A stretch of DNA of 43,124 bases from the IMG/VR virus record IMGVR_UViG_2531839664_000026, positions 1 to 43,124 of that record; one strand, given 5' to 3'. The stretch's first letter is position 1, and the number at the start of each line of letters is the position of its first letter. The DNA comes from a virus. Its lineage: Duplodnaviria; Heunggongvirae; Uroviricota; Caudoviricetes. Shown here piece after piece: positions 33,001-36,000 of the stretch. The position numbers were made by a program.

Positions 33001-36000
33001 CACTCTGACGTAACTTGCTTGCTGACTGCAGAACGCGCTGTCGTGAGTAACCTGCAAAAGCATCCGCAATGTCTCCGGAAGTACAGCCCGGATGGGCTTC
33101 AATGAATTTCTGAACTTCATTCAAAAGACTCATGATCACCCCCTGAATCCTGCCGGGATCTGGCTGTAGTCCACGTTGTCGTAACTGGCTTTGAAGTACG
33201 GGTCCTCGCGTCTGGCTGCAGATACCGCAGGAACTTCCCAGGATTCTTCGAAATGACGATCCGGACCAAAGAACGTGACAGCCTGTTTCACAAATTGTGT
33301 GCCGCTGTTACCCATCGCAGATACCCAGCCCGCGTAGCGTTTCACACCTTCCAGCATGGTTTCGGGGTTTACTCCCTCATTCAAACGGGCTTTCCAGGCT
33401 TTGAAGGCTGCAGATTTTGAATTGCCACCAGCACGTTTGGGATATGCCAGCCATGCCTGCTCAAACTCCGGAGAGTATTCCGGTCGGTTTGAACGAACTC
33501 GCACGGACTCATCAACTGATGCACCAACAGCTATTGGTTCATTGACTGGTTCTTTGACTGGTTCAAAAGAGTGACTGGTTCTGGGTGAATCTCCTGCACT
33601 ACCCCCTGGTGCAACTCCTGCACTACCTGGTGAATTTGCTGCACCAGATAGTGAATTATTTGCACTACCCCCTAGTGAATCTCCTGCACCATCAAGATGA
33701 AGAAGATAGATATTACTTGAGTTACCTTTTTCACCTTTCCGGGTGACTTTTTTACCAGCCCGGACTCACAGAGGGCCGCAATATGATTCATCACAGAACG
33801 TTTGCTAATCTCGCACTGATCAGCGATATGCTGATAGCTGGGCCAGCACTCGCCCTGATCGCTGGCATTATCAGCCAGCTTAATCAGAACCAGTTTTCGC
33901 AATGGATTTCCCACTCGAATTTTCATCGCTTTAACCATCAGCTCCATACTCATGCAGCACCTCCGAGATGCTTCATGTTTTTTCCGGAGCGAAAGGCTAT
34001 AAGCGGCATACTGACGCGGTAACTACGGCCCAGCGGTTCACAAATCACCTTCTGACATTCACGGTCAACCAGGCTAACACGTAGAACATGCCCTGCAGGT
34101 GTGGTGTACCACTGCCCCGGACGAGGACAACGGAAAGTCTGATTGGTAAACCGTTTGAAAATATTCCGGATCATTTGCGCCCCCTTACCTCTGAAGGGTT
34201 CAGCGACAAATTTATGAGGCAGGCCAGTGCCGAAGCATCATTAATATAGTCATACAAGCTAACAGCCAGCGGAGATTCGGCTTTTGCCAACATAGGATAA
34301 AGCTGCTGCAGCCAGACCTGATGAATTGATGAAATGTAGGAATAGAGAACGCTGGCGTTATGTGCAACGTCGCTCAGTACAGAGGGATTTGAAAGCTGTT
34401 TCTCCATCTGGTTAAAGGCATTGATGTATGCCTCTTTGAACTGGGCAGCACGTTTACCCGTGAAACCCATAGCAAGAAACGCAAAGCCGTCGCGGGTTAT
34501 TTGATAGCAAGGTAGTTTGCGGCCTGTGCAATCGGTGTAATCACTCACCGAAAAATTGCGGGAAGTGAATGATGCAGAGCATTCAAGCGTGCGGATCTTT
34601 TTCAGTACATCGTCATGACGTTTGGAGAAGAAGTTGGCAACAGCCAGGGATGAAGTAACAGCCTGACCATCAACGATGGCAATTTCAGGTTGAGTGAGGG
34701 TTGAGATCGTAGCCATGATGGCAGCCTCCGATAACAGTGAATTACCTTCACCACCGGAAACGCCAATTTCGCTGGTGGTGAACTGAACGGGGTTGGCGTA
34801 ACCGGCGTTATCGGAAACCGGCGCACCTTTCGGTGCCCCCGTCCAGCCCACCATAATTTGGGTGTGCACAGACGCAGACGATAAAAAAGACGCTGGCGCG
34901 TCATATATCGCCGATAACATTTCTAGGACGCCAATCCCGGCACCCGCTTTATAAGGTGCCTGAACAGTGTAACGTCCCGGAATGGCAGAATCAATGTGCT
35001 GGTGGTCCTTCACACTCAACAAAATCACGCCTGAATTTCCACAAAGGACTAAAGCACTCATGCGGGTAGTCTTTGCGAAGATAGATAACGCGCTGTGTTT
35101 CTGGTTCCCAACGAATAACATGAACATAAAGCCCTCTTCCGTCACGAAACCAGCGGTTAAGTTCCTGCACAACTCGCCCCCCACAGTCAGGTAAAGTTCT
35201 CTGTGGTTACTTACAGCCAGGTGATTTGGTAATCTGCATTCATGCCGTAACAACAGGTGTTCAGAGACGCTGACCACCAGCTGTTGCGACAAACGGTTAT
35301 TTGCCGTTAAACTGTTCATGCGTTAGTTTCTCCACAGACACAAAACGCCACGACGCCCGGAGCTGCACACTCGCGGGCGTCACTCTTTTCTGGAGCGCAA
35401 AAGATTTTGTAGACCAGTGCTGCATGCTCCTGGAGCTTCGAAATTGACAGATACAACTCATCATTAATTGCTGTCTGCTCGTGTGGCTCCACTACCCCAT
35501 CTTCGATTGCCGAACGAATCTGTTTTGAGTAACTCCCGATCTGTTCGATGACTTCCAGCAGGCGCTGGTTTATATCGGCGTTCTCAACTTCCTCAATGTC
35601 AGGAAGCGATACAAACACCCCACCTGCAGACTGTGCGACAGCATCCGCAATGTAGTGAGTGCCAGCCGCGCGCTGTAAAATCATTGCCCATCCCAGCGGG
35701 AAAATCTGATCGCCATCTGCACGAAGGCGGTTGAATAAAGCGTTCTCTGTTACATCCAGCCACTCAGCAGCTTCAGCGTAACCCCCCGGCAACGCCGCGA
35801 TAGTTTTTCTGACAGCTTTCACGTACCACTCAGGCTGTTTTTCCATTTTCCAGTGATGCTTACCCACGGCTTACCTCCTGTTCCTGTGGTTTAAACCCAT
35901 TCTGGTTTTGGCTAGATTGAAAACGTGTCGGATAAAGAATCTGCATTTCGCTGATTTCACCCTTAAAAAAATTGGCCAGACGTTCTGCAAGATCGATAGA

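Follow-up and report, generated by a model that had tools for sequence, protein, structure and literature searches.

Iteron plasmid origins, such as those of RK2, F, and pPS10, carry specific iterons beside a host-directed or unwinding element. In phage lambda, four to five dyad repeats of ∼20 bp lie inside the initiator gene O itself, in the stretch coding for the linker between the two domains, and repeats are also located inside gene 18 of phages P22 and L (bioRxiv 10.1101/2020.10.05.325894). Here, we analyzed a stretch of 43,124 nucleotides (nt), referred to as the window, which corresponds to IMG/VR record IMGVR_UViG_2531839664_000026 (Caudoviricetes) and provides all coordinates given below. 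Between 33 and 34 kb, two short open reading frames (ORFs) abut at an array of imperfect repeats. It is very likely that the two ORFs are parts of a single lambda O-like initiator gene of the SfV Orf39 family, that the phage origin lies inside this gene, and that the copy in the window is frameshifted (Table 1).

The reading frames were compared with those of relatives by using an 881-bp query, which matched 70 phage records. In four annotated relatives, SfV (orf39), mEp460 (gp43), ST64B (sb42), and cdtI (gp46), one "replication protein" coding sequence (CDS) of 819 to 885 nt, encoding 272 to 294 amino acids (aa), spans both ORFs. The sole difference at the junction in the alignment is GTAAAAAAAGTC in these relatives versus GTAAAAAAGTC in the window. 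With one A lost from the A7 run, translation leaves the frame at codon 70 and therefore stops after 93 aa, so that no intact single reading frame is present in the window. Only with one A restored does the product reach 272 aa, with 100% identity to SfV Orf39 and a colinear match over residues 3 to 271 to phrog_270, "replication initiation protein" (E = 1.7e-88). Loss of a single A has broken one replication-initiator gene of the prophage into the two abutting ORFs. A preliminary description of the locus had pointed out that an indel in an A run near 33740 to 33760 would fuse the ORFs, and the homologs, with A7 in place of A6 and a single CDS of 272 to 294 aa, bear this out. It had also correctly placed the stop codon of the winged helix-turn-helix (wHTH) ORF within the array and had noted that the downstream ORF has only a GTG start, below ∼250 nt of open frame encoding a Gly/Ser/Ala/Pro-rich linker; the frame is in fact open from 33765, 262 nt above the GTG, and encodes such a stretch across the repeats. 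Both ORFs are on the minus strand. The treatment of the locus as two replication ORFs did not hold, as the homologs show a single gene. A layout of two proteins with a noncoding origin between them, which would have spoken against the preliminary description, was not seen; all homologs examined carry the repeats within the CDS of one protein.

In the repaired protein, Pfam identified HTH_36 at residues 17 to 67 (E = 1.8e-11) and DnaD_N at residues 22 to 85 (E = 3.6e-5), with no match to Phage_rep_O at E < 0.01. AlphaFold2 predicts helices at residues 3 to 11, 17 to 28, 40 to 47, and 51 to 63, the last of which is the recognition helix, followed by wing strands at residues 67 to 73 and 79 to 85. 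Residues 91 to 156, encoded by the repeats, are predicted to be disordered, with a predicted local distance difference test (pLDDT) score of 30 to 40. Both predicted wing strands come after codon 69/70, and the frameshift there therefore deprives the winged helix of its wing in this model. The C-terminal domain carries the motif FExxWxxYPKRxGGNxKxxAxKAW and is modeled as three helices (pLDDT of 57 to 76). A Foldseek search with the whole model returned generic winged-helix folds only, including DnaD-N (2v79) and 4pql/4pt7, at E values of about 0.02 to 0.04. The resemblance to lambda O that had been proposed stands for the architecture, namely, an N-terminal DNA-binding domain, a repeat-encoded linker, and an exchangeable C-domain; it fails for family membership because the N-domain is HTH_36/DnaD_N-like and not Phage_rep_O. 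The initiator family is large, comprising >5,400 database proteins at E ≤ 1e-10.

The repeat array was delimited by Tandem Repeats Finder at 33585 to 33689, with a period of 24, 4.6 copies, and a score of 77. The pattern GTGCANNANNTKCAC matches five cores on the minus strand, located, from repeat 1 to repeat 5, at 33675 to 33689, 33651 to 33665, 33630 to 33644, 33609 to 33623, and 33585 to 33599. When one mismatch was allowed, the pattern matched 11 times in the whole window versus 1.9 expected, and 0 of 100 shuffles reached 11. The iterons occupy gene nucleotides ∼265 to 369, between the portions encoding the winged helix (residues 1 to 90) and the C-domain (residues 157 to 272). With five cores, the locus possesses at least three direct repeats of ∼17 to 24 bp in helical register by a cognate initiator gene. 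The earlier report of five ∼20-bp copies plus three short repeats at 33540 to 33700 was right as to the repeats and was adjusted in extent, the array running from about 33536 to 33689.

The same N-domain family is present in Vibrio phage D186, Stx2a_F451, Klebsiella phi12.5, Pectobacterium ZF40, and mEp554, where three to five dyad repeats of 21 to 24 bp directly follow the winged helix; the repeat sequences differ, and the encoded peptides are completely different. Across 159 loci pooled from the genome-contig scan, the IMG/VR scan, and phage records, the sequence of the repeat core changes with that of the recognition helix. Thus paired are SKRSVMNH with GTGCAGGAGATTCAC, SKRSVMRH with GTGACAGAGAGTCAC, DKRTAMRH with GTGACAAAATGTCAC, SKSAVRNH with TATGCCAnnnnTGGCAC, xRSTVKxH with GGGGCAGGAGCTGCCC, and DRSTVRKH with TGTAGGCCCAGAAAGCAC. 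The copy number of the iterons varies in frame-preserving steps: cdtI has 66 additional bp, equal to three more repeats (eight versus five), and proteins of 250 aa (P0028), 272 aa (P0016), 294 aa (P0008), and 302 aa (P0001) differ only in the iteron segment, with roughly 2, 5, 8, and 9 copies, respectively. These comparisons constitute strong evidence that the repeats behave as expected of initiator-binding sites, and binding by the initiator is predicted. Comparison among relatives likewise supports the repeats as the putative phage replication origin, and the co-variation of recognition helix and repeat favors the preliminary description in its view that this is probably the phage origin.

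A second conserved feature adjoins the iterons. The short repeat TGACTGGTT of the preliminary description, reverse complemented to GAACCAGTCA, is present in exactly three copies in 43 kb versus 0.08 expected, at 33572 to 33581, 33555 to 33564, and 33543 to 33552, all inside the constant element listed in Table 1. These copies are not a second iteron type but part of an element of ∼35 nt, whose coding-strand consensus is AGAACCAGTCACTCTTTTGAACCAGTCAATGAACC; the window has one extra GAACCAGTCA copy. The constant element has a GC content of 43% and encodes the peptide PRTSHSFEPVKEPVNEP. To describe its conservation, 57 related sequences were used, 52 of them loci from the scan and five of them genes of phages or prophages, with the window copy counted separately. 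Mismatches to the 35-mer numbered 0 to 3 in 45 of the 57 sequences and 4 to 8 in eight, with no match in the remaining four; the window copy has one mismatch. The genome-contig scan returned 56 loci. In our numbering of the loci, the near invariance of the element concerns the window, L014 to L064, and L070 to L189, and the loci come from Enterobacteriaceae, Pseudomonas, Shewanella, Marinomonas, Xenorhabdus, Microbulbifer, and Vibrio, with several loci identical to the consensus. One of the six peptide probes in the genome scan covered the element motif, which qualifies these counts; most loci retained for comparison carry the N-terminal probe MELMVKAM exactly, so that they could be found through it, and the probes are degenerate at the DNA level.

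Within the same sequence set, the commonest codon is used at 92% of amino-acid-invariant codons in the element versus 56% in the N-domain, and AGA, AGT, TCT, CAC, and GAA are fixed in the element, even in high-GC Pseudomonas. In four Shewanella-group loci (L055, L057, L060, and L061), a 2-nt deletion in the spacer shifts the frame of the first half of the element, which then reads HPEPVTLEPVNES instead of PRTSHSFEPVNEP, and the DNA is retained. Judged from these alignments, the element is constrained as DNA, not as peptide, because synonymous sites are frozen and the DNA is kept across a frame change. The element also marks a module boundary. In all 113 of 113 IMG/VR contigs with enough upstream sequence, it is immediately preceded by this N-domain and a variable repeat array, and the C-domains found downstream of it in different hosts are of at least six unrelated kinds. 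ST64B is near-identical through the N-domain and repeats and diverges from the SfV type right after the element (L003 versus L001), while in the hybrids P0062, P0069, and P0072, this very C-domain is fused to other N-domains with their own iterons, always at the element. Tentatively, and with a confidence that falls a little short of probable, we propose that it is a family-wide origin core beside iterons of many specificities, serving as the site of melting, helicase loading, or a conserved partner. This partner could be the N-terminal 48 residues of the initiator, which are invariant and perhaps act on single-stranded DNA; a conserved host factor is the alternative, and these candidates, jointly with melting or loading, are the most likely roles. 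Comparison by eye with the IHF, Fis, DnaA-trio, and sigma-70 consensus sequences gave no convincing fit. A description of the element was not found in the literature searched, and one motif search gave only unrelated primer matches.

Table 1. Features of the initiator locus and its putative origin, in window coordinates
Feature	Coordinates	Strand	Remarks
Replication-initiator gene (SfV orf39/phrog_270 type), frameshifted pseudogene	33136-33953	minus	Repaired product, 272 aa
Upstream wHTH ORF	33953-33672	minus	93 aa; Pfam HTH_36
Downstream ORF	33504-33136	minus	122 aa; GTG start
N-terminal winged helix, residues 1-90	33684-33953	minus	Pfam; AlphaFold2 pLDDT 77-89
A6 run, site of 1-nt deletion (A7 in relatives)	33748-33753	minus	From alignments; with G33747, A_AAA_AAG
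TAG ending the truncated 93-aa zero-frame product	33672-33674	minus	In spacer between repeats 1 and 2
Lowest-GC patch of the region (GC 0.37)	33680-33739		Promoter-proximal flank of iterons; encodes wing
Five predicted iterons, 15-bp cores GTGCAnnAnnTKCAC	33585-33689		Imperfect dyads; spacing 24/21/21/24 bp
Constant element AGAACCAGTCACTCTTTTGAACCAGTCAAAGAACCAGTCAATGAACC	33536-33582	minus	47 nt; directly 3' of iterons; N/C module boundary
C-terminal domain, residues ∼157-272	33139-33485	minus	phrog_26426 and C-terminal part of phrog_1701

We infer initiator binding, origin activity, a role for the constant element, and helicase recruitment from this arrangement. The N-terminal winged helix would bind the five dyad 15-bp iterons as dimers, at a spacing of about two helical turns, with the iterons lying in the DNA that encodes the initiator's own disordered linker. 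The invariant element of ∼35 to 47 nt would be the most likely site of opening, helicase loading, or contact with a conserved partner, and the helicase machinery of the host would be brought in by the C-terminal helical domain, as suggested by the lack of a phage helicase or loader gene downstream. In the window copy, the origin DNA would be intact and the initiator would not be made, save for a possible small leak by -1 slippage; such a prophage should not replicate alone unless an initiator of the same specificity were supplied in trans. Several observations weigh against this reading. The repeats also encode a repetitive peptide, and part of their regularity could therefore be a property of the protein. 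No DnaA box was found within 33 to 34 kb and no classical AT-rich tract near the repeats. The C-domain has no relative by Pfam, NCBIfam, PDB sequence, PDB profile, or per-member Pfam scans, and helicase recruitment is therefore a guess. In the literature searched, neither origin mapping nor binding is reported for any family member. The left 20 kb of the window form an uninterrupted lambdoid head and tail module free of insertion sequences (ISs); the prophage is therefore less obviously decayed than the RM8352 copy described below, which leaves some room for the gene being needed.

To estimate the frequency of the broken allele, complete E. coli genome records (n = 896) were searched with an exact A6 67-mer and an exact A7 68-mer, which were found in 10 and 727 records, respectively; the A6 67-mer was present in 0 of 40 phage records. 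Nine of the 10 A6 records, from several laboratories, are 100% identical to the window over 881 bp, and five of these nine are labeled O121 or O121:H19. The tenth, KSC64 (L007), carries A6 on a background that is only 97.5% identical, and its A6 therefore arose independently or by recombination. In RM8082 (L006), a single base is lost elsewhere, within iteron 4, where G5 has become G4. The identical gene in strain RM8352 is already marked "frameshifted" in RefSeq (by the Prokaryotic Genome Annotation Pipeline), and positions 24000 to 43124 of the window are base-for-base identical to the RM8352 prophage. Elsewhere in the family, Pseudomonas bharatica CSV86 (L031) has a truncated copy of 133 aa, and one IMG/VR contig is also frameshifted. 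Through independent single-base frameshifts, genes of this family seem often to be among the first to be lost in resident prophages.

The deletion changes GTA AAA AAA GTC to GTA AAA AAG TCA and so creates the heptamer A_AAA_AAG in the canonical -1 phase (X_XXY_YYZ), with the first A at codon position 3. A -1 slip on this heptamer restores the 272-aa protein exactly. A_AAA_AAG is among the most slippery heptamers in E. coli, and the best V_VVA_AAG motifs slip at about 0.3% without stimulators and at most about 3.7% in a favorable 3' context (PMC4066793). Minimum-free-energy folding predicted no structure 5 to 8 nt downstream, the heptamer lying in or beside a small hairpin (z = -2.0), and no upstream Shine-Dalgarno-like element was found near the heptamer. 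Because the arrangement is not conserved and no spaced stimulator is predicted, the heptamer is an accident of mutation, not a programmed signal. It probably allows only a small leak of full-length protein; that this leak suffices to keep the prophage replication competent is less likely than the proposed role of the constant element as an origin core.

Two alternative explanations concern the break itself. If the A6 run were a homopolymer assembly error, the true sequence would be A7 and the gene would be intact. Single-base homopolymer deletions are typical long-read errors, a second 1-nt deletion in the window splits the nanS-p esterase gene relative to RM8352, and both RM8082 and KSC64 show single-base indels in the initiator gene. 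Such an error, shared among records, is nevertheless unlikely in the face of the same A6 in nine independently assembled complete genomes that agree over all 881 bp, together with the base-for-base match of the 24000 to 43124 interval to RM8352, and we concluded that the deletion is real, lineage restricted, and inactivating. The heptamer might instead be used deliberately, with a programmed -1 frameshift yielding both a 93-aa N-terminal protein and the full 272-aa initiator, as in dnaX and the IS3-family transposases. Its correct phase, the exact restoration of 272 aa upon slippage, and the high slipperiness of its class in E. coli (PMC4066793) all fit this idea, but the two-frame layout occurs in 0 of 40 phage and 10 of 896 E. 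coli records, with A7 and one frame in all other relatives; spaced downstream structure and a Shine-Dalgarno-like element are both lacking, and the slippage published for the motif class is 0.3% to about 3.7% (PMC4066793). The zero-frame product would, moreover, be without the wing. Programmed frameshifting is therefore highly improbable, and a broken gene remains the preferred explanation.

The other two explanations concern what the ORFs and repeats encode. The ORFs could encode two genuine proteins, one a small DNA-binding protein and the other a C-terminal protein starting at GTG 33504. Both frames are open in the window; partial copies are common, only 900 of 2,728 matching records covering ≥80% of the query, and E. 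coli K-12 carries a 122-aa C-terminal remnant annotated as yfdO. This layout is, however, not the intact state of any relative, the junction is crossed both by the DnaD_N match in Pfam and by the predicted fold, and no promoter-like site was found in a scan of 33.0 to 34.3 kb, which together make two proteins extremely unlikely. It is also very improbable that the repeats are only a low-complexity peptide linker without DNA function and that the origin lies elsewhere. They do encode a Gly/Ser/Ala/Pro-rich disordered segment (pLDDT of 30 to 40), and their copy-number changes preserve the reading frame. Every lineage, however, has DNA dyad units with a period of two helical turns despite wholly different peptides, the core sequence tracks the recognition helix, and the DNA of the adjoining constant element is conserved at synonymous sites and across a frame change.

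The early genes at 31 to 36 kb are all on the minus strand. The order is cI (36218 to 36910, plus strand), cro, cII/YmfL, a Rha/Ash ORF, a 74-aa ORF, the two ORFs of the initiator gene, and genes for PerC-like, Dam, LexA-like, and RusA proteins; in intact relatives, the initiator gene is located in the early rightward operon, after cro, cII, rha, and a small ORF. With PerC-like, Dam, LexA-like, and RusA genes as its downstream neighbors, the initiator gene of the window is not immediately followed by a cognate P-type helicase loader. In phiP27, L17 (L010) has the same C-domain and precedes DnaC-like and helicase genes, and relatives with other C-domains (L009, L011, and L012) precede a helicase (ZF40), a primase-helicase (F451), or a "replication protein" gene (Klebsiella phi12.5); among these relatives, the SfV type alone is without an adjoining replication partner gene. 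The promoter scan of 33.0 to 34.3 kb returned no site, and an Rfam scan gave no match inside 33136 to 33953. Rfam did match a C4 antisense RNA (82.8 bits) and isrK (56.6 bits) at 34771 to 34959 on the minus strand, in the 5' half of the 382-aa Rha ORF, where the matches overlap the Pfam Phage_ASH stretch (residues 117 to 212). The long Rha ORF call, and perhaps the Ash "domain" too, may represent translation of an RNA-based immunity locus.

The RM8352 prophage contains IS600, two IS3-family elements, and truncated lysozyme, terminase, and tail genes. A defective-prophage context for the window, taken from RM8352, was considered and is weakened by the IS-free 1- to 20-kb portion and by the absence of a whole-window match, the entire window being contained in no complete E. 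coli genome. All 80 of 80 mismatches to RM8352 cluster at 20 to 24 kb. A nanS-p-type SASA esterase gene at 22116 to 23968 (minus strand) is split into ORFs of 128 and 492 aa by one base missing at 23648 relative to RM8352, where the CDS is intact (616 aa), and constitutes a second single-base break in the prophage. AgvB (anti-GcvB) and STnc100 small RNA genes are arranged back to back at 24116 to 24367 and 25144 to 25373, and the esterase has two tRNA genes upstream of it; such cargo is typical of lambdoid prophages of the Stx type.

A single pseudogene should be annotated in place of the two ORFs, and the prophage should be scored as being without its own initiator, yet with an origin still open to firing by a related phage, which bears on the inducibility and mobilization of the element in a Shiga-toxin-producing E. 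coli background. The table of helix-to-iteron co-variation provides testable specificity rules, and the invariant element provides a defined 35-mer for testing origin opening or factor binding. In the literature searched, the origin of this very common initiator family appears never to have been mapped. The finding is otherwise largely ordinary, and the invariant 35-nt core is the one element of wider interest.

Compared with other systems, the locus shares a winged-helix fold with DnaD-N (2v79) and with 4pql/4pt7, which were deposited under the titles "N-terminal domain of DNA binding protein" and "Structure of initiator" (the latter 4pt7) and which are staphylococcal RepA_N plasmid initiators; the match is weak and generic, and the C-terminal parts and host range differ. 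The A_AAA_AAG heptamer in X_XXY_YYZ phase, at which a slip would give a longer functional product, is reminiscent of dnaX and of IS3/IS911-type frameshifting, but the arrangement in the window is not conserved, lacks stimulators, and arose by recent deletion. Like the iteron plasmids, the locus has variable initiator-specific repeats adjoining a constant element; unlike them, its array lies wholly in coding sequence, with no DnaA box and with a constant element that is not AT rich. The likeness to lambda O and ori-lambda is closer and extends to an N-terminal iteron-binding domain (predicted here), an exchangeable C-domain, a position in the early rightward operon, dyad repeats within the linker-encoding part of the gene, and a repeat specificity that differs between related phages. 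In contrast to lambda, no P-like loader or helicase gene follows the initiator gene in the window, a GC-balanced invariant element of ∼35 nt replaces the AT-rich tract, and the window copy is inactivated by a frameshift. The closest relatives are SfV Orf39, mEp460 gp43, ST64B Sb42, and cdtI gp46 (phrog_270), whose genes are intact (A7) and of which cdtI has eight iterons rather than five. After repair, the window initiator is 88 to 100% identical to these proteins, with the same iterons, constant element, and neighbors, and the same module is carried by many Stx2c and Stx2a prophages.

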